From Candidatus Multivoradales bacterium (GTDB lineage: Bacteria; Acidobacteriota; Thermoanaerobaculia; Multivoradales; Multivoraceae): a DNA stretch of 64,000 bases. The DNA lies in NCBI GenBank assembly GCA_965223325.1, contig CBDCWI010000002.1, forward strand, positions 632,881 to 696,880. The letters are read 5' to 3'. The notes beneath the pieces were generated by a model that worked only from the letters and a program-made list of their open reading frames with translations, searched no databases and was not told where the DNA came from. Positions 3,621-43,117 of the stretch are shown in pieces. Position numbers and translations under genes: made by a program. Positions within the stretch are counted from its first letter, which is position 1; each line of letters begins with the position of its first letter.

Positions 3621-5950
3621 GAAAGCGGATTGCCGCCTGGCTCGCCGGCCTCGCTGCACGGCGCCCGGTTCTCTTGCTGGCCGTTGCAACCGTCCCGGCC
3701 CTCCTGGTCGTCACTGCGCTCCCGGGGCTGCCCGTCGACATGAGCTTCGCCGGCATGATGGACCGCCAGGATCCCGAGGTCGAGCGCTACTTCAGGACCC
3801 TGGGCGAGCTCGAGATGGGGGGCGAGGTTCTGCTCCTGCTCGAGGGGCCCGACGAACTGCTCGACGACGCCGCCCGCCGCGTCATGACGGCGGCGGCCGC
3901 AAACCCCGACGTGGTGGGCACGGATTCGGGCGTGCCGGCCGAATGGCTAGAAGAGAACGCCGCCTGGCTCGCTCCGAGAGACCTCTTCGACCAGTGGCTG
4001 GCCTGGGTCGAGGGTTCCGAAGACATCGCCGAGGGTATGAAGCTCCTCGCGCGCTTTCGAGAGCTCCAAGAGTCGACGCGCACCGAAGGGTCGCGCCTGG
4101 TCACCATTCGCCTACGGCGACATCCACTCGAAGTCGACTTCGGAGGCAGCGAGTTTCTTCGCCTCGAAGAACAGATCCTGGCGTCCATCGACGACCACCG
4201 CATCTCCGCTGGGCTCTCTGGGCTGCCGGCCGTTGCCGCCCAGGACCAGAGCCGCACCATGGGTTCGATCAAGCGACTCACCCCGGTCAGCCTGTTACTC
4301 GCTCTCCTTCTGTTTCGCTTCCTCGAACCGCGGCTGCTCGGCCTCTTGGCGGTTCTCGCACCGCTTGCTCTGGCCGTTGTGGTCACGCTTGTTCTGACCG
4401 GATGGATTCTGGGCGGCATCACTGTGATGGAGACCTTCTTTGGCATCATGGTCTTCGGTCTCGGCATCGATTTCGGCATTCACCTCTTGAGCCGGCTGCA
4501 GGAAGAACAAGCAGCCGGAAAGCCCTTCGAAGTCGCGTTGTCGAACGCTCTCGCCCTCTCGGGCGCAGGCGTCGCCGCCGGCGCCGTCACCACCGGTGGC
4601 GCCTTCCTGATCGTCGCCATGGCTCCCGAGCCGGTTGCCAGGCATCTCGGCTTCCCAGGTGGCATCGGACTGCTCCTCTGCCTTGCGCTCACCTTCACGG
4701 TGCTTCCCGCACTGTGGGCCTTACTCGAGCGACTGCCCAACAAGGTGCCCCCGAGAGCGTTCTCGCGATCGGATGCAACGGGCTCGGCATCCAAGAGACC
4801 CCTCGGCCCACTCGAACGCATCGCCGCCGCGGCGACCGAGCGCGCCAACCTGACGATCGCTATGGCCGGAGTCCTCGCCGTCACCGCGATGCTCGGGACT
4901 GCTCGCTGGGAATTCGAAACCGACCTGACCAAGGTCTTCAATCGACAGGTTCCCGCCCTCGCGGTGGTCGAAAGGGTCCAGGAACTCCACGGTCTGAACG
5001 GAGCTCCATGGTTCGTCGCAGTCGCTGATGAGGCTGCGGCAGCGCAGCTGGTCGAGAAGTTCGAAGCGCACCCGACCTTTGCCCGCGTCATGAGTCTGAG
5101 CAATCTCCTGCCCGCCGACGTCACGGAGCGCCAACGCGCCCTGGCAGCCTGGTCTGGCAGAGCACCGGCCGGTTCTTCTCCGATGTGGTCGCTCGCAGCG
5201 GCGCCACTCTTATCGGCGAAGCAGAACGGACCTCCAGGCATCGAAGATCTTCCTCAGGTCCTTCGCAAACGCCTGGTGGCGCCAACGGGAGAGCTCATCG
5301 TCTACGCCTGGGCAACGCGCTCTCCGCTGTCGGGCGAGGAGGCACTTGGGCAGCGCATCGCGGCGCAATCGATTGCTCCTCGGGCCACCTCACTCGGCGT
5401 CCTGATCGAGAACATTCTCGGAGCCGAGCGCCCCTGGCTGTGGCGCCTCCTAACGGCGATCCTGGCCTTCGTCGCTCTCGTGCTGTGGGTCGATTTCAGG
5501 TCTCTCTGGCTCTCGGTGCTCGCCCTGGTCCCGGTGACCCTCGGCGTCATCGGAACGATCGGGATTCTCTGCTGGACGGGCACCGCCTTCAACGTCATGA
5601 CCGTGATGGTCGTGCCGCTGATCCTGGGCCTCGGCGTCGACGACGGGATTCACGTCGTGCACCGGCTGCGTGAGGACGGCGGACACGATCCGGCGGCGGC
5701 AGCCGCAGCCGTGGGACGAGCCATCACCATGACAACCGCCACGACCTGCTCGAGCTTCTTCGTCCTCTTGTTCGCTGATCACCCCGGGCTCGAGTCGATG
5801 GCCTGGGTCATGCTGATCGGCCTACCGCTCTGCCTGTTGACCTCGATCACCGTCCTGCCAGCACTGGCTCGAAAGCTCGGGTCAAAGGTCTTCGCGCCAT
5901 CGCCCGAGGTCGCCAGGGAGTCGGCGACGGGAAATCCGGCTGTTCTCTGA
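3617..5950 (+). CDS. MMPL/RND-superfamily membrane exporter (HpnN-like)
   Basis: A 777-aa polytopic membrane protein with two bundles of TM helices separated by soluble loops, the topology of MMPL/RND proteins. It is translationally coupled to the upstream methylase. Confidence 0.65.
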   Translation: MRKRIAAWLAGLAARRPVLLLAVATVPALLVVTALPGLPVDMSFAGMMDRQDPEVERYFRTLGELEMGGEVLLLLEGPDELLDDAARRVMTAAAANPDVVGTDSGVPAEWLEENAAWLAPRDLFDQWLAWVEGSEDIAEGMKLLARFRELQESTRTEGSRLVTIRLRRHPLEVDFGGSEFLRLEEQILASIDDHRISAGLSGLPAVAAQDQSRTMGSIKRLTPVSLLLALLLFRFLEPRLLGLLAVLAPLALAVVVTLVLTGWILGGITVMETFFGIMVFGLGIDFGIHLLSRLQEEQAAGKPFEVALSNALALSGAGVAAGAVTTGGAFLIVAMAPEPVARHLGFPGGIGLLLCLALTFTVLPALWALLERLPNKVPPRAFSRSDATGSASKRPLGPLERIAAAATERANLTIAMAGVLAVTAMLGTARWEFETDLTKVFNRQVPALAVVERVQELHGLNGAPWFVAVADEAAAAQLVEKFEAHPTFARVMSLSNLLPADVTERQRALAAWSGRAPAGSSPMWSLAAAPLLSAKQNGPPGIEDLPQVLRKRLVAPTGELIVYAWATRSPLSGEEALGQRIAAQSIAPRATSLGVLIENILGAERPWLWRLLTAILAFVALVLWVDFRSLWLSVLALVPVTLGVIGTIGILCWTGTAFNVMTVMVVPLILGLGVDDGIHVVHRLREDGGHDPAAAAAAVGRAITMTTATTCSSFFVLLFADHPGLESMAWVMLIGLPLCLLTSITVLPALARKLGSKVFAPSPEVARESATGNPAVL

Positions 5951-5999
5951 CTCCCTTTGAGACAAGCCCCCTCTGGGGCCTCTCATTGTTCTCCTTTTC

Positions 6000-6335
6000 T
6001 TGGAACCCCCGTTCATGAATCACCTGCTTCAACAGGTCGGCCAGCACATGGTCGACGTCGCACCTCCCGACTTCGCCGCCGCTCGGCTGATCGTCACCGT
6101 CCACGAAGGCAACGTCGAAGTGCTCTCGCGCTTCGAGGACGAGAACGGCGAGAGCTCGGACCTGCCCATCGACATTCTGCTCGTCGCTCCTCTCTGGCTC
6201 GAGATCCGCAGTCATCTCGCCAAGGAAACGGGGCGCGAGCCCTTTGAGGCGGCGACCTTCACGCTCGCCAACGATGGCCACTTCGACCTCGACCTGCGCT
6301 ACGAAGATGACGAGCCGCAGGACGAGGGCAGGTAG
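6000..6335 (+). CDS. Small acidic hypothetical protein (111 aa); candidate inhibitor or immunity partner of the downstream nuclease-domain protein
   Basis: Clean GC3-biased coding frame. The product is D/E-rich (EDENGESSD, RYEDDEPQDEGR). Its stop at 6333-6335 lies only 6 nt before the start of the next gene. Confidence 0.5.
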   Translation: MEPPFMNHLLQQVGQHMVDVAPPDFAAARLIVTVHEGNVEVLSRFEDENGESSDLPIDILLVAPLWLEIRSHLAKETGREPFEAATFTLANDGHFDLDLRYEDDEPQDEGR

Positions 6336-6341
6336 TCCGTC

Positions 6342-7619
6342 ATGGCCTGGCTTCCCTATCCCACGCTCTCGCGTCTCCCATCGAGGCCCACCGCGAACGA
6401 TTCGGTTGCTGCCGCCCCGGCAGAGGGCCCGGACCGCGAACATTCATCGCCGAGCTCTCTTCCTGGTGACGTCATTGGCGATGTCTTCGAGAGTGCCGCC
6501 AACGACAACCCGGACCGCTCCCTGTTCGACGGCCGCCTCGACCTGCGTAGGTCCGCACAAGCGCAAGCTGTCGACCCCGAAGACGGGTGCAGCTGTGAGA
6601 ACGAAGGCGAACAGGCATCCGTCGCAACGGCAAGGCAACAGCGGCGCCCCGAACCCAACCGTCTCTACCGAGTGGGTGACTACATCTACCGGACCGACAC
6701 GTTCGGCCGGGTGACCTGCGCTTCGGGCAAGCTGCGACTCGAGAAGGGGGGCCGCTCAGCCTACTGGCAGAAGAAGGTCGGTGACAGCGGTTACTGGCAC
6801 GACGACGGCGGCCACCTGATCGGCGATCAGTTCGGCGGCAAGTCGACGCCGCTCAACATGCTTCCCCAGCACTGGGGTCTCAACCGCGGAGCCGGCAGTA
6901 CCTGGCGATTCGAGATCGAAGACAAACTCGCCGGCCTGCTCGAAGACGGGCACGAGGTCTGGCTGAAGGTTCGCCCGCAGTACGCGCCGGTCGCCGCCGC
7001 AGATTCAGTCGCCGCTACGCGTCCGATCGCCTACGCAGTCGAATACCGAGTGGTCCTCCATGGCGAAGCTGCCAAGACCGCCCCGGAAGCCGACTACGTC
7101 GTGCGCCACTACCTCTACAACACTCGCGACGGGAAGCTCGCCCCGGCGGCCGAACCGGCCGAGCGTTCCGACCTGAGGCGGCCGGAACCCAACGCGCACT
7201 ACCTGGTCGGTTCTCTCGTCTACACCACCGACCACCTCGGCCGTGTCTCGAGGGTCAGCGGCCAACTCGCGCTCGACAAGCAGCGTGACTCCTACTACTA
7301 CCGCCGCAAGATCGGCAAACTAGGCAACAAGGGCGACGAGGGGGCTCACCTCATCGACCGTCGCTTCGGTGGCAAGAGTGTGCCGCTGAACCTGGTGCCG
7401 CTCGACCGCGACTTGAACCGCGACAAGGCCAGTGAGTGGATGGCGATCGAGAACCAGATTGCCGAGGCACTCGAGGAAGGGCGCGAAGTCAACGTCGATT
7501 TCGAGGTGCGCTATCCCGCGGGCTCCACCTCACATCGACCAGACGAGATCCTGGCGGCCTGGGGTATTGACAAGGCGTCGTACCAGCGCCGGGTCGAGAA
7601 CGAACACGGCGACGACTGA
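6342..7619 (+). CDS. Protein with two tandem His-Me-finger (NucA/Endonuclease_NS_2-like) endonuclease modules
   Basis: Two ~150-aa repeats each begin with RRPEPN. Each contains GHLI(G/D)xxFGGKSxPLNxxP...LNR...W...E...AL(E)(D/E)G.EV...Y. Compare GGHLIGDQFGGKSTPLNMLPQHWGLNRG with GAHLIDRRFGGKSVPLNLVPLDRDLNRD. The N-terminal ~100 aa is low-complexity and there is no signal peptide. Confidence 0.7.
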   Translation: MAWLPYPTLSRLPSRPTANDSVAAAPAEGPDREHSSPSSLPGDVIGDVFESAANDNPDRSLFDGRLDLRRSAQAQAVDPEDGCSCENEGEQASVATARQQRRPEPNRLYRVGDYIYRTDTFGRVTCASGKLRLEKGGRSAYWQKKVGDSGYWHDDGGHLIGDQFGGKSTPLNMLPQHWGLNRGAGSTWRFEIEDKLAGLLEDGHEVWLKVRPQYAPVAAADSVAATRPIAYAVEYRVVLHGEAAKTAPEADYVVRHYLYNTRDGKLAPAAEPAERSDLRRPEPNAHYLVGSLVYTTDHLGRVSRVSGQLALDKQRDSYYYRRKIGKLGNKGDEGAHLIDRRFGGKSVPLNLVPLDRDLNRDKASEWMAIENQIAEALEEGREVNVDFEVRYPAGSTSHRPDEILAAWGIDKASYQRRVENEHGDD

Positions 7620-7752
7620 ATCCCGGGCACCGGCGCTGCGGTGGTGGTGTGCCAGGGAAAACACACTGGGCTCGATGCGCTTAGACTGAGACCCCGCGAC
7701 CGCAGAGATCGCGCGATGACGAATCGGTCCACAGCCTTCGAACGGTGCCCGC

Positions 7753-9213
7753 TTGAGTCTCCATCCTCCCGCTCCCCACAGAAGGACGCCTGCCGCGGCA
7801 GCGTTCACCGCCAGCCTTCTGTCTCTGCTGGCCGCCTCGGTGCTGGCCGGCTGCCGGCCGACCGCCGAGCCGCCGCCGGGCGCCTCCGCGTTGCCAAAGC
7901 CGGCGCCAAAGTCGGCGCTCGAGACTCCGGCGCCGTTCGAGAACCTGATCATCCTGATGATCGACACCCTGCGCGCCGACCATCTTCCCTGCTATGGCTA
8001 CGAGCGCAACACCGCCCCTTTCGTGTGCCGCCTCGCAGAGGATGGTCTTTCCTTCGAGTCCTACTCCGCCTCGTCGTGGACGCGGCCGTCGGTCGCCACC
8101 CTCTTGACCGGTCAGCCACCACCGGTGCACCAGACAATCACCCGCAGCGACTCCCTGCCGGCCGCGATCCCGTACCTGCCTGAACTCCTGAGCGAGCAGG
8201 GTTTTGTGACCGCGACGTTCGTCGGCAACCTCAACAGCGGTCGGCGCTTTGGTTTCGCGCGTGGCTTCGAGCACTACCACCAGACTCGGCCGACCGGCAA
8301 GGTCGATGGCGCCAAGGTCACCGATCGCGGCATCAGCCTCCTCCCGATGCTCAGCGGGCGCTACTTTCTCTACCTGCACTACGTCGACCCGCACGACCCC
8401 TACCGTCCTGCGCGCCCGTGGCAGAGCGCAGGAAGAGAAGCACGAGAACACTCCTGGACGCAGCCGCGAAAGATCGGGTCCCGCCCCCCCAACCCGCGAG
8501 AGATCACCAGCCTCATCGATCAGTACGATGGCGAAATCCGCGAGATGGACAGCGAGATCGAGCGCTTCCTGGCGGCTGCCGACGCGGCCGGGCTGCTCGC
8601 CGACACTCTCGTGGTGATCACTTCCGATCACGGCGAAGAGTTCGGTGAGCACGGCGGCCTCACCCACGGTCGGACCCTGTGGGAAGAAGTTGTAGCGGTA
8701 CCACTCGTTCTGTGGTCCGCCGACGGTCGGCTCAGGCCATCGGCTGGCCGCCCGGTCCTCGACCACATCGATGTCCTCCCGACGCTCCTCGAAGCACTGG
8801 CGCTCGAGGTCCCCCAGGGCCTGGCCGGCGACTCGCGCTGGTCCAACCTCGAGGCGCCGCGAACAGGTTCCCGCTGGTTGCATCTCGACCTCGATGATCG
8901 CGCCCTTCTGGCTTCGCGCAACGGCGACCAGAAGACCATTTGGAGCCCGCAGAGAAGCCTCACCTTCGACCTGGCGAGTGATCGAGAAGAACAGGCGCCG
9001 CGCCCGGCCAAGCGCCAAGCGACACTCCACATCCTCGAGCACTACCTGGCAATCGTTACCTCAACGCCACCGCAGCAGGCGCCACTGGATGACGAGGCAC
9101 AGGCGGCGTTGACGGCGCTGGGCTATCTGGATCCAACCGAAGACACCACCGACCTCGGCCGGCGACAACTCACCCGCGAGTCGATCGAGCGCGCCCTCGA
9201 TCAACTGCCCTGA
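7753..9213 (+). CDS. Sulfatase-like (alkaline phosphatase superfamily) hydrolase, lipoprotein
   Basis: Lipobox-type signal (LLAASVLAGC), then ILMIDTLRADHLP and later ITSDHGEEFGEHGG, both typical of sulfatase/AP-superfamily enzymes. It is paralogous to the CDS at 41012-43117. Confidence 0.8.
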   Translation: MSLHPPAPHRRTPAAAAFTASLLSLLAASVLAGCRPTAEPPPGASALPKPAPKSALETPAPFENLIILMIDTLRADHLPCYGYERNTAPFVCRLAEDGLSFESYSASSWTRPSVATLLTGQPPPVHQTITRSDSLPAAIPYLPELLSEQGFVTATFVGNLNSGRRFGFARGFEHYHQTRPTGKVDGAKVTDRGISLLPMLSGRYFLYLHYVDPHDPYRPARPWQSAGREAREHSWTQPRKIGSRPPNPREITSLIDQYDGEIREMDSEIERFLAAADAAGLLADTLVVITSDHGEEFGEHGGLTHGRTLWEEVVAVPLVLWSADGRLRPSAGRPVLDHIDVLPTLLEALALEVPQGLAGDSRWSNLEAPRTGSRWLHLDLDDRALLASRNGDQKTIWSPQRSLTFDLASDREEQAPRPAKRQATLHILEHYLAIVTSTPPQQAPLDDEAQAALTALGYLDPTEDTTDLGRRQLTRESIERALDQLP

Positions 9214-9219
9214 CGCTTC

Positions 9220-9957
9220 GTGCCCGACAAGCGCCGACAACGTGGCCCGCACCCGCGCGACAGCAGGGACTTCTCCCTCGCGGGGGTCGCGACTCTGAGA
9301 ACGGCGGTCAAGGAGCTCTCGACCCTCCTGAGCTGGGGCTACTCGCACAAGGCGGCAGTGACGCTGGTTGGTGACCGCCACCTGTTGCGGGTGCGTCAAC
9401 GCAAGGCTCTGAGTCGCTGCGCGGCTTCTGATGCGGCGTGCCAGGACCGACTCTCTCGACGGGTGAAGCTCCAGGCCATCGCCGGCGAACAGCTCTGGAT
9501 CGATGGCTACAATGCGTTGTTGACCGTCGAAGCCGCCATGTCGGGAGGCGTCATTCTCATCGGGCGCGACGGCGCGGCGCGCGACCTGGCCTCGTTGAGC
9601 CGCCACTATCGCGACGTTCTCACTACCGGGCCAGCACTCGAAGCCATCACCGCCATGCTCCACCGGGCAGAGGTGGGAGGAGTCCGGTGGTTGCTGGACC
9701 GCCCGATCTCGAACAGTGGCCGGCTGGCCGCTCGGATCCGAGCGATCGGTGAGGCCGCCGGCCGAAGCGACGACGTCGATCTGGTCGCCAGTCCCGATCG
9801 TCTTCTCAAAGAGACCTCCCACCCGATCGCCACCGCCGACAGCGCGATCCTCGACCGCTGCCAGCGCTTCGTCGACCTGGCTGGTGAGACCATCGAAGAG
9901 CACGTACCCAATGCCTGGGTGATCGACTTCTCGGGCCAGGAGGAAGAGCCGGTGTGA
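9220..9957 (+). CDS. Hypothetical protein (possibly DUF434-like)
   Basis: 245-aa GC3-biased ORF located 6 nt after the sulfatase stop. I see no recognisable catalytic motifs and the family assignment is only from memory. Confidence 0.45.
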   Translation: MPDKRRQRGPHPRDSRDFSLAGVATLRTAVKELSTLLSWGYSHKAAVTLVGDRHLLRVRQRKALSRCAASDAACQDRLSRRVKLQAIAGEQLWIDGYNALLTVEAAMSGGVILIGRDGAARDLASLSRHYRDVLTTGPALEAITAMLHRAEVGGVRWLLDRPISNSGRLAARIRAIGEAAGRSDDVDLVASPDRLLKETSHPIATADSAILDRCQRFVDLAGETIEEHVPNAWVIDFSGQEEEPV

Positions 9958-41011: not shown

Positions 41012-43117
41012 ATGCCTCGCTCTCGGTTCCTCCACGTGACCCTCAACGCGATCCTGGCGATCAGTCTCCTCAGCTGTCGGCCGGAGCCGTCATCTCTTGC
41101 CAGCGCCAGCGAAGGGAACGGCTCAGACGAGGGTCGACCGGACATCCTGCTCGTGACCCTGGACACCACGCGCGCCGATGCCATGGACTGGGAATCGGGC
41201 GGCACCGCGACTCCCAACCTGGCGGCGCTCGCCGAGCGAGGAGTGCGCTTCGCCCACGCCTACACCACGGTGCCTACGACGCTTCCCGCCCACACCTCTC
41301 TCTTGAGCGGCCAGTATCCGGCCGAGCATGGAGTCCACGAGAACGCGCGCACACTCGACCCGGCGACGCCGCTGGTCACAGCAGAGCTCAGCGCCTCCGG
41401 ATACGAGACAGCGGCGTTCGTCAGCGCCGCGCCACTGGCGGCACGATTTGGCCTGGCGCGTGGTTTCGCGCTCTACGATGACGACTTCCCCACCGGCCAA
41501 GCCGAACGCTCGGCCACCCAGACGACAAAGCGCGCAGAGCACTTCCTGACGGCAGCCGATTCCACGGAGCCGATCTTCCTGTGGGTGCACTACTTCGATC
41601 CCCACGACCCCTACCAGCCGCCCGAGCCTTTCGCCTCGCGTTTCCGAGACCGTCCGTACCTGGGCGAAGTGGCCGCCATGGACGATGCCTTCGGCTCCCT
41701 TCTTGCGACGTTCGAGCAAGTCGCCAAGAGGCGTGGGAGGAGTCACCAGGTGCTGGTGGTCGGCGATCACGGTGAAGGGCTTGGCGACCATGGCGAGGTC
41801 CGGCACGGCAACCTGCTCTACCAGGGCACGATCCGGGTTCCGCTGGTGATCGCCGGCGAAGGCGTCACCGTTTCAGTACGCAAAGACGAGGTCAGCACAC
41901 GACGGGTCTACGACACCATCCGGGCCTGGGCCAAACTCGAGCGAATCGCCACGGAGAACTCCCTGCTCGACCCGGGAGTCGATGAAGTCGTCATCGCGGA
42001 GGCGATGAAGCCGTTTCTGCAGTACGGTTGGCAGCCCCAGGTAGCAGCCGTTGGTCCAACCTCCGCAGGCGCAACGTCGAAAGCCATCATGGCCGGCGAC
42101 TTCGAACTCTTCGACCTGACCCGTGATCCCCACGAGAGCCTCGACCTCTCCAAAGCCGGCGCGCGTCTCCCCACCACCCTGGCCGATGCCATCTCTTCCT
42201 ACCCGGTGGTCCCGCGGCTGAGACAAAGCTCGCTCGCCAACACCAACAAGCCGGCCCTCGACAACACCGAGAGGGCCGAGCTGGCGGCGCTCGGCTACGC
42301 AGATGCGACCGGCCCCTCGGTTCGGGTCGGCCTACGCGAAGACGCGCCAGCGCCGCGCGCGATGACTGGCCTCTTCGAATTGCTCGACCGCGGCTCGCTC
42401 CTTTTTGCTGCAGGTCGCTACCAGGAAGCTTCGGTGGTGTTCGAGAAGGTGCGCTCCTCGGACCCGAACAACCCGGCAGCCGTCATGCGGCTTGCCATCG
42501 CTGCCTCGAGCCTCGGTGAAACCAGAAAGGCCGATCGGCTCTTCGAGGAAGCACGCCGATTGGCACCGGACTCGCCAGATGTTCGCCACTACCACGCCAT
42601 GCACCTTCTGCGCAGCAACCGCCCGCTGCTCGCCGAACCCTTCTTCATGGCGGTGCTCGACCAAATGCCCAATCGCCTCCCGGCCCTCGAAGCCCTCAGC
42701 CGCATCCGTGAGCGCCAGGGGCGCCTCCCGGAGGCACGCGAGCTTCTCGAACGTGCCAACGCCCTGGGACTTGCGGACAAAACCACGCTCGTGCGTCTGG
42801 GAGGCCTTCGTATGATGATGGGCGACAGCCGTCCCGCGATCGACGCGCTAGAACGAGCCCGCGCTCTTCCCGGCCCCTTCCCCTCCGATCTCGAGTTGGG
42901 AGTGCTCTATCTCGCCGAGCGACAGTTTGAACAGGCGCGCCAGGCTCTCGACCGGGTCCCGCCGAATCACCCCGGCTGGCCCATGGCGGCCTTCAAGCGC
43001 GCCCAGGTCAGCGTCCTGCTCGACGAACCCGATCAGGCGGAGTACATCGAAAGGGCCCGCCAAGTCGCCGATGACACCACCCGCAAACTAATCGCCGGGG
43101 AGCGACTCTTTCAGTAG
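41012..43117 (+). CDS. Sulfatase-like hydrolase fused to a C-terminal TPR-repeat domain
   Basis: Lipoprotein-like signal. The N-terminal half is paralogous to the CDS at 7753-9213 (LLVTLDTTRADAMD, VVGDHGEGLGDHGE). The C-terminal ~280 aa has TPR-like helices. Confidence 0.75.
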   Translation: MPRSRFLHVTLNAILAISLLSCRPEPSSLASASEGNGSDEGRPDILLVTLDTTRADAMDWESGGTATPNLAALAERGVRFAHAYTTVPTTLPAHTSLLSGQYPAEHGVHENARTLDPATPLVTAELSASGYETAAFVSAAPLAARFGLARGFALYDDDFPTGQAERSATQTTKRAEHFLTAADSTEPIFLWVHYFDPHDPYQPPEPFASRFRDRPYLGEVAAMDDAFGSLLATFEQVAKRRGRSHQVLVVGDHGEGLGDHGEVRHGNLLYQGTIRVPLVIAGEGVTVSVRKDEVSTRRVYDTIRAWAKLERIATENSLLDPGVDEVVIAEAMKPFLQYGWQPQVAAVGPTSAGATSKAIMAGDFELFDLTRDPHESLDLSKAGARLPTTLADAISSYPVVPRLRQSSLANTNKPALDNTERAELAALGYADATGPSVRVGLREDAPAPRAMTGLFELLDRGSLLFAAGRYQEASVVFEKVRSSDPNNPAAVMRLAIAASSLGETRKADRLFEEARRLAPDSPDVRHYHAMHLLRSNRPLLAEPFFMAVLDQMPNRLPALEALSRIRERQGRLPEARELLERANALGLADKTTLVRLGGLRMMMGDSRPAIDALERARALPGPFPSDLELGVLYLAERQFEQARQALDRVPPNHPGWPMAAFKRAQVSVLLDEPDQAEYIERARQVADDTTRKLIAGERLFQ

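Follow-up and report, generated by a model that had tools for sequence, protein, structure and literature searches.

The 64-kb window analysed in this study (64,000 nt, the whole stretch of DNA that was examined) lies on an Acidobacteriota (Thermoanaerobaculia-like) chromosome, and the relatives found through the MMPL gene flanking the locus are metagenome-assembled genomes (MAGs) of Acidobacteriota/Thermoanaerobaculia. The subject is a two-gene cassette near the start of the window, in which a small acidic open reading frame (ORF) precedes a gene for a protein with two tandem nuclease modules. An earlier inspection of the letters without database searches, hereafter the sequence-only reading, had described this pair. 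Both ORFs were indeed found where it had put them, in the same direction, with 6 nt separating the TAG stop of the first from the ATG of the second. The features are as follows (HMM, hidden Markov model; pLDDT, predicted local distance difference test).

6015..6335, + strand: putative immunity gene, 106 aa, acidic (pI 4.3), predicted short form of the EsaG/YezG/DUF600 (Imm36) fold
6336..6341, + strand: spacer of 6 nt from the immunity stop to the nuclease start, operon-like coupling, read directly from the sequence
6342..7619, + strand: putative two-headed nuclease toxin gene, 425 aa from ATG, matching PF13930 in two stretches
6342..6638, + strand: leader, residues 1-99, disordered, A/S/P/D-rich, without known domain
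6639..7121, + strand: nuclease module 1, residues 100-260, PF13930 at 63.7 bits when searched alone
7122..7172, + strand: inter-module linker, residues 261-277, between the two HMM envelopes, pLDDT low at 260-266
7173..7616, + strand: nuclease module 2, residues 278-425, PF13930 at 76.5 bits when searched alone, model pLDDT above 90

Three loci of the pair are known, namely the window, L001 and L002, and the small gene adjoins the nuclease gene in all three of them. In its maximal form the small ORF of the window runs from a TTG codon over 6000-6335 and encodes 111 aa, with the TAG stop at 6333-6335. The form entered in NCBI/ENA (P0005) has 106 aa and starts at ATG 6015, and the small-protein ortholog in L002 begins at the equivalent Met; ATG 6015 is therefore the likelier start. 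The acidity and the spacing described for the 111-aa D/E-rich ORF were thus sustained (24 D and E residues against 7 K and R), while its start was moved downstream. The 425-aa protein is identical to P0001, an NCBI/ENA entry on a 4.5-Mb contig. In the window the small and the large ORFs share one frame across 6333-6341, and a read-through of the TAG would fuse the immunity protein to the toxin. Such a fusion was considered and rejected, because the L002 spacer of 1 nt puts the two ORFs in different frames; the shared frame is probably a coincidence.

The 425-aa protein matched PF13930 (Endonuclea_NS_2) in Pfam with an E value of 2.7e-39 and 134.8 bits, spread over two stretches. When the modules were searched separately, module 1 reached 63.7 bits (E 2.6e-17) and module 2 reached 76.5 bits (E 3e-21), both above the gathering score of 27 bits. 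The family named in the sequence-only reading was therefore exactly right. The internal repeat, residues ~100-220 against ~279-400, had 46% identity across 114 aa (BLASTP of the pair, E 2e-32), which is higher than the ~35% estimated earlier. The motifs listed at that time were all present in both modules: RRPEPN at residues 101 and 279, GGHLI with H158 and GAHLI with H336, PLN with N172 and N350, and LNR with N181 and N359. In S. aureus EsaD, H528 is catalytic and N551 is a Mg ligand (PMC9616950), and equivalents of both residues align to each of the two modules, in agreement with the proposed catalytic His and metal-ligand Asn. The predicted site of module 1 thus comprises the catalytic H158 (nt 6813-6815), N172, the Mg ligand N181 (nt 6882-6884) and E193, and that of module 2 would comprise the catalytic H336 (nt 7347-7349), N350, the Mg ligand N359 (nt 7416-7418) and E370. 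The catalytic signature GH…N…N…E (Zhang 2012) was found in both modules and likewise in the modules of the L001 ortholog. Moreover, neither the window protein nor the L001 ortholog deviates, in either module, from the D/H/N/N/E columns, which are 97-100% conserved over 152 family domains. Module 2 carries Ala335 in place of the 98%-conserved Gly preceding the catalytic His, and the same replacement is seen in both orthologs. The idea that the two heads differ in charge in a conserved way was also considered and was rejected, since orthologs do not share the difference.

As for the fold, module 2 matched the S. aureus EssD/EsaD nuclease domain in the PDB by sequence (E 8e-11), and it was modelled with a pLDDT above 90 in the full-length AlphaFold model. 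The best fold match of the modelled module 2 was EsaD (8gun_B; E 3e-12, template-modelling (TM) score 0.78 normalised to the target, 29% identity), followed by Sda1, NucA (2o3b_A, E 1.7e-5), EndA and EXOG. The ββα-metal fold on a central β-sheet was accordingly recovered in the model of module 2. Structure modelling, which had been suggested as a check for both modules, bore out the EsaD fold for module 2, while the finger of module 1 was modelled poorly, as considered below.

The two-head form proved to be rare. An exhaustive phmmer search against 1.84 billion representatives returned 1669 relatives, among which an E value of 1e-30 or below was reached only by the query and the L001 ortholog. 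Among the best 152 of these 1669 relatives, two modules were found only in the same two proteins; the L001 ortholog is 61% identical to the window protein and keeps the two-head architecture. Furthermore, the domain occurred in 71 records among 72,556 plasmids and 50,697 phages, and it was a single stretch of ~400 nt in all matches listed. The rarity of two heads is thereby confirmed within these sets. The 64-67% 'coverage' of the plasmid and phage matches might suggest tandem relatives, and this was rejected because both query modules map onto the same ~400-nt stretch; the plasmid matches are haemagglutinin tips. No close nuclease relatives were found in the genome collection, nor in the metagenome and viral scans made with the three-copy alignment, and a profile search for further relatives of the small protein returned only the three known copies.

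In the neighbour-joining analysis, the orthologous modules paired in 200 of 200 bootstraps, and therefore the tandem is older than the split of the two lineages. The four modules grouped together in only 13 of 200 bootstraps; either an old duplication or the joining of two unlike tips could have given rise to the tandem. Among proteins with a single head, the nearest relatives have Fil_haemagg/DUF637 (CdiA), Tox-PAAR-like, PT-TG and PT-HINT domains, and the heads therefore derive from the pool of polymorphic toxins found in diderms.

The structure of the small protein was modelled from an alignment of the three known sequences (pLDDT 85.7, predicted TM score 0.75), which gave the topology α-β-β-β-α-β-β. 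The only strong fold matches of this model in the PDB were EsaG and the DUF600 protein BH3703, and the model shows the BH3703-like α+β fold, in which a four-stranded sheet is packed by helices. DUF600 corresponds to Imm36, an immunity family that folds like BH3703 and is paired primarily with Tox-NucA (PMC3482391). The upstream acidic ORF therefore appears to be of the cognate inhibitor type, as had been supposed: a YezG-like Pfam match just over the threshold goes together with the modelled EsaG/DUF600 fold. The more specific suggestions did not hold. NuiA was absent among the fold matches, only EsaG/DUF600 being significant, which argues against an inhibitor like NuiA or barstar; and a DNA mimic is disfavoured since the fold is EsaG-like and the mechanism known for that family is deformation of the nuclease (PMC9616950). 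A weak local match of the sequence profile of the small proteins to Ros/MucR (2jsp; E 0.006, residues 43-77, 'DLPxD…AP…E.RS.LAKE') was judged spurious, because both fold searches gave EsaG/DUF600. NCBIfam gave nothing useful, as TIGR01741, with 16.2 bits, fell short of its cut-off of 82.

On Ralstonia and Salmonella replicons, haemagglutinin-type toxins have Tox-NucA tips that are also adjoined by small proteins of 106-111 aa. The one from Ralstonia scored 23.6 bits with PF04634 and was 27% identical to the window protein from end to end, with the same endpoint; no Pfam match was obtained for the Salmonella protein. The short form in the immunity position after the Ralstonia Tox-NucA tip, as judged from sequence, independently supports the view that the window gene encodes a short-form immunity protein. 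In Ralstonia CP052129.1 (L012, 1294-2264) and Salmonella CP053577.1 (L011, 1944-2279), the short abutting proteins are annotated as 'hypothetical', and the Ralstonia copy resembles a minimal Imm36/DUF600 form overlooked by present annotation.

To place the cassette in its genomic context, the window was compared with related loci. The order PilZ, SpoU, MMPL, sulfatase, DUF434 and YdjC is shared by the window and L003, whereas the spacer between MMPL and sulfatase is 1.8 kb in the window (5950-7753) and 239 bp in L003 (12277-12517), where the cassette is absent. The related genomes thus differ by an insertion or deletion of the cassette. Its GC content matches that of the surroundings, and a search of the window junctions for repeats (direct or inverted), tRNA genes and genes for mobility gave nothing convincing. 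The scan for promoter and terminator consensus sequences and the Rfam search of the window gave no match. Synteny with the window also holds for L002, where the small gene is followed by the nuclease gene with a 1-nt spacer. In L001 the pair lies in a different neighbourhood; both nuclease modules are kept, including GGHLIG and LNR of module 1, and the immunity homolog, 34-37% identical to that of the window, is found downstream of the nuclease gene after an 11-nt spacer. Hence the inhibitor-first order is not conserved, and synteny of the orthologous pairs with the window was found for L002 only, the L001 pair being adjacent in another setting. The ratio of nonsynonymous to synonymous substitution rates (dN/dS) was 0.29-0.47 for all parts of the cassette, with dS saturated.

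Several further observations were made at these loci. At L001 4080-6056, on a contig with 2x coverage, the nuclease gene has a frameshift in a G-run near 5911-5924 and the upstream flavin adenine dinucleotide (FAD)-oxidase genes also seem broken up; errors of assembly are a likelier cause than true pseudogenes. A 294-aa protein without Pfam match is encoded directly after the L001 immunity gene (7303-8187) and has no counterpart beside the window cassette. L006, L008 and L009 are titled 'uncultured Rickettsiales', and their MMPL proteins are 42-44% identical to that of the window, as are those of the Thermoanaerobaculia MAGs L004, L005 and L007; the three bins are probably mislabelled taxonomically. 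Genes elsewhere in the window encode a fusion of a CotH kinase-like protein with a lamin-tail domain (103-1851), a DUF434+DUF5616 protein (9220-9957) and a second sulfatase (41012-43117); the last is a fusion with TPR repeats and shares 32% identity with the sulfatase beside the cassette.

We consider that the locus is a chromosomal toxin–immunity cassette of a Tox-NucA nuclease (Endonuclea_NS_2, EsaD/YeeF-like) and an Imm36 protein (DUF600, EsaG/YezG-like), with a probability of roughly 0.8. The family membership of both heads, their intact catalytic residues, the linkage of the two genes in three lineages and the rare tandem form are observed, and the small protein has an EsaG-like fold in the structure model. 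According to this explanation, the 425-aa protein would be a Mg-dependent, sequence-non-specific His-Me-finger DNase with two complete heads behind a disordered leader of ~100 residues. The co-transcribed 106-aa acidic protein would bind the nuclease in the producer cell and hold it inactive. By homology with EsaG, its edge β-strand most likely joins the nuclease β-sheet and prises the ββα-metal finger apart; it would neither plug the active site nor mimic DNA. We infer the DNase activity, the neutralisation and its mode by analogy with the EsaD–EsaG pair.

Several results weigh against the toxin–immunity explanation. The first group concerns the small protein. With PF04634 ('Immunity protein YezG-like'), the window protein scored 24.1-24.4 bits, marginally above the gathering score of 21.7; the ortholog P0006 scored 20.5 bits, below the cut-off, and P0155 gave no match. 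A sequence profile of the three small proteins searched against the PDB did not reach EsaG. The EsaG-type assignment is therefore settled by the structure model, where the sequence scores are marginal, and the TM-score of its fold matches normalised to the target is only 0.41-0.46. At 106 aa, the protein is also not of the full-length Imm36/EsaG architecture of ~150-165 aa. The final strand, residues 90-96, corresponds to positions ~104-112 of the 146 in the profile, and only an acidic tail comes after it, so that the protein stops just past the equivalent of EsaG β4' and is without the C-terminal helices αD' and αE'. In the 8GUO structure, these two helices of EsaG hold helix αB of EsaD (PMC9616950), and since they are lacking here, the mode of inhibition may differ.

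The toxin raises objections as well. The finger of module 1 (residues 137-190) was modelled with a pLDDT below 50, which is an artefact of alignment depth: in the MAFFT alignment the 77 homologs all lie on module 2, and the full-length model is uninformative on module 1 and on the packing between the modules. Since the homolog rows covered only module 2, the fold of module 1 is assigned through sequence homology only. In addition, a single immunity gene stands beside two heads with only ~45% identity between them. The EsaD–EsaG crystal complex is 1:1, EsaG acting by deformation of the nuclease (PMC9616950), and S. aureus keeps arrays of esaG paralogues that are thought to track toxin variants (PMC9484751). 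Moreover, nothing that would deliver the toxin was recognised. No signal peptide-like hydrophobic stretch is visible by direct reading, no Sec or Tat signal was found in residues 1-40, and the Pfam scan of the 425-aa protein detected no LXG, RHS, PT-TG, MuF-type or other trafficking domain, all of which confirms what had been stated from the letters. Among the ~40 larger ORFs scanned across the window, there was none with a secretion, injection or mobile-element function, and T7SS (type VII secretion system) genes were likewise not found in the window.

At the N-terminus, residues 1-100 gave no Pfam match, residues 9-102 were modelled as disordered with a pLDDT below 50, and no N-terminal secretion determinant was found in the 425-aa protein (type II secretion signal, type V, type VI or type VII secretion, Photorhabdus virulence cassette (PVC), MuF, others). 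The dN/dS of the leader was ~0.47 against L002, with dS saturated. The leader is otherwise fast-evolving, and the start MxWLP(Y/F)P is kept in the window (6342-6638) and in L002 (672-990); a GRL motif and a CxC motif, the latter ~15 residues before module 1, are present in all three copies, including that of L001 (5514-5790). Almost none of the 78 family members of at most 320 aa has a recognised delivery domain, and many have acidic low-complexity N-termini. These short members without delivery domain thus fit the 'unstalked' class of Zhang et al. The lack of a delivery domain emphasised earlier is real, but it is common among the short members of the family. Since the heads have their nearest relatives at the tips of CdiA, PAAR-like, PT-TG and PT-HINT toxins and the leader motifs are conserved, we give about even odds to the proposal that the protein is exported by a route recognising its leader and serves as an antibacterial competition toxin. 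A more elaborate version is quite improbable: the paired heads would form a pseudo-dimer, for example for cutting both strands, one minimal EsaG-like protein would silence both of them, for example sandwiched between sheet fragments of different heads, and export would be guided by the leader MxWLPxP … GRL … CxC.

If the nuclease were never exported, the pair might be an intracellular toxin–antitoxin (TA) or abortive-infection-like module, in which a labile small partner releases the nuclease upon stress or phage attack and the cell's own DNA is degraded. The want of a signal peptide, a trafficking domain and nearby secretion genes agrees with this, as does the isolated two-gene island with its presence/absence polymorphism between relatives; the antidote-first order, tight coupling and small acidic partner in the window and L002 also resemble a type II TA layout. 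However, the gene order is reversed in L001, and the EsaG fold is well ordered, unlike that of a labile, disordered antitoxin. No defence model of PADLOC-DB matched either protein at E ≤ 0.1, both families are known from secreted polymorphic toxins with CdiA, PAAR and PT-HINT tips as the closest relatives, and the conserved leader of ~100 aa would be left unexplained. We therefore regard a TA-like module as unlikely.

The large protein could alternatively be a 'public' nuclease, released for nutrient scavenging or for turnover of extracellular DNA or biofilm, with the inhibitor protecting the producer before export, in the manner of Anabaena NucA/NuiA. The fold is related to those of NucA, EndA and Sda1, the flanking genes encode transporters and hydrolases (MMPL, sulfatase, YdjC), and two heads could raise the activity on extracellular DNA. 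Nevertheless, a protein without a Sec or Tat signal peptide in residues 1-40 is a poor candidate for such a role; its inhibitor has an EsaG fold, NuiA being absent among the fold matches, its sequence relatives are toxin tips, unlike housekeeping secreted nucleases, and the pair is dispensable in the syntenic L003, so that a public nuclease is very unlikely. The lowest rank goes to a stranded orphan remnant, in which two tips of a former CdiA/Rhs-type array were fused, for example by loss of an intervening immunity gene, and can no longer be deployed. Such a history would account for the missing delivery domain and for heads that are not resolved as sisters (13 of 200 bootstraps), each being nearer to different toxin tips, and orphan tips with short immunity genes do occur in Ralstonia. 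A remnant is not expected to keep its architecture, start codon and leader motifs across lineages whose proteins differ by ~40-50%, with orthologous modules pairing in all 200 bootstraps, dN/dS below 1 and intact catalytic residues in four of four modules. The sole disruption is the G-run frameshift on the 2x-coverage contig of L001, and we find this history hardly credible.

The toxin–immunity cassette is thus of a known kind, Tox-NucA/EsaD with Imm36/EsaG; what is new is the two heads, the minimal immunity protein, the stand-alone cassette and the Acidobacteriota host. With it, the EsaD/EsaG-type pairing, studied almost wholly in the T7SS of Bacillota, is extended to Acidobacteriota and to a cassette that stands alone. 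A problem of stoichiometry also arises for 'toxin-deformation', which is 1:1 in the crystal, since two heads are faced by a single immunity gene, and a truncated one. Should both heads be handled by a single short immunity protein, the minimal element for deformation-type inhibition would be revealed; otherwise another control would be needed for one head. The conserved leader could moreover mark an export signal not yet recognised, in a phylum that has received little study. Apart from these points, the locus is an ordinary member of the polymorphic toxins.

Compared with the T7SSb pairs S. aureus EsaD (EssD)/EsaG (EssI) and B. subtilis YeeF/YezG, the window protein is without the LXG/WXG100 N-terminal domain and the T7SSb context, and it belongs to a diderm host of the Acidobacteriota, while those are from Bacillota. 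The toxin has two heads and theirs have one. The immunity protein has 106 aa and is without αD'/αE', whereas EsaG and YezG have ~160 aa. Unlike in the EsaD/EsaG system, the immunity gene of this lineage lies upstream and there is no array of immunity paralogues. The Anabaena NucA/NuiA and barnase/barstar pairs share the logic of a non-specific nuclease with a small acidic intracellular inhibitor, and NucA also has the ββα-metal fold; however, the fold of the window inhibitor matches EsaG/DUF600 only, and NucA carries a secretion signal, whereas the window protein has none.

Related systems are also the Tox-NucA/Imm36 cassettes of diderms, the CdiA/haemagglutinin tips of Ralstonia and Salmonella and the Dickeya RhsA. 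They have the same toxin head (35-37% identical) and likewise an abutting gene for 106-111 aa, which lies downstream there. Their heads are single, however, and are tips of long 'stalked' proteins or orphan fragments, whereas the window cassette stands alone and encodes a short 'unstalked' protein with two heads, its own start codon and a disordered leader. Another short 'unstalked' PF13930 nuclease without classical secretion domains is Pne1, a cargo of the Pseudoalteromonas metamorphosis-associated contractile structure (MAC), a contractile injection system. Pne1 has 496 aa, is delivered as MAC cargo and targets eukaryotic cells (bioRxiv 10.1101/543298); it has one head, and contractile-injection genes are absent from the 64-kb window. 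The 'unstalked' class of polymorphic toxins was described by Zhang et al. 2012 (PMC3482391), and the window cassette has the arrangement of such toxins, in which a toxin domain at the C-terminus is accompanied by a neighbouring gene for the cognate immunity protein.

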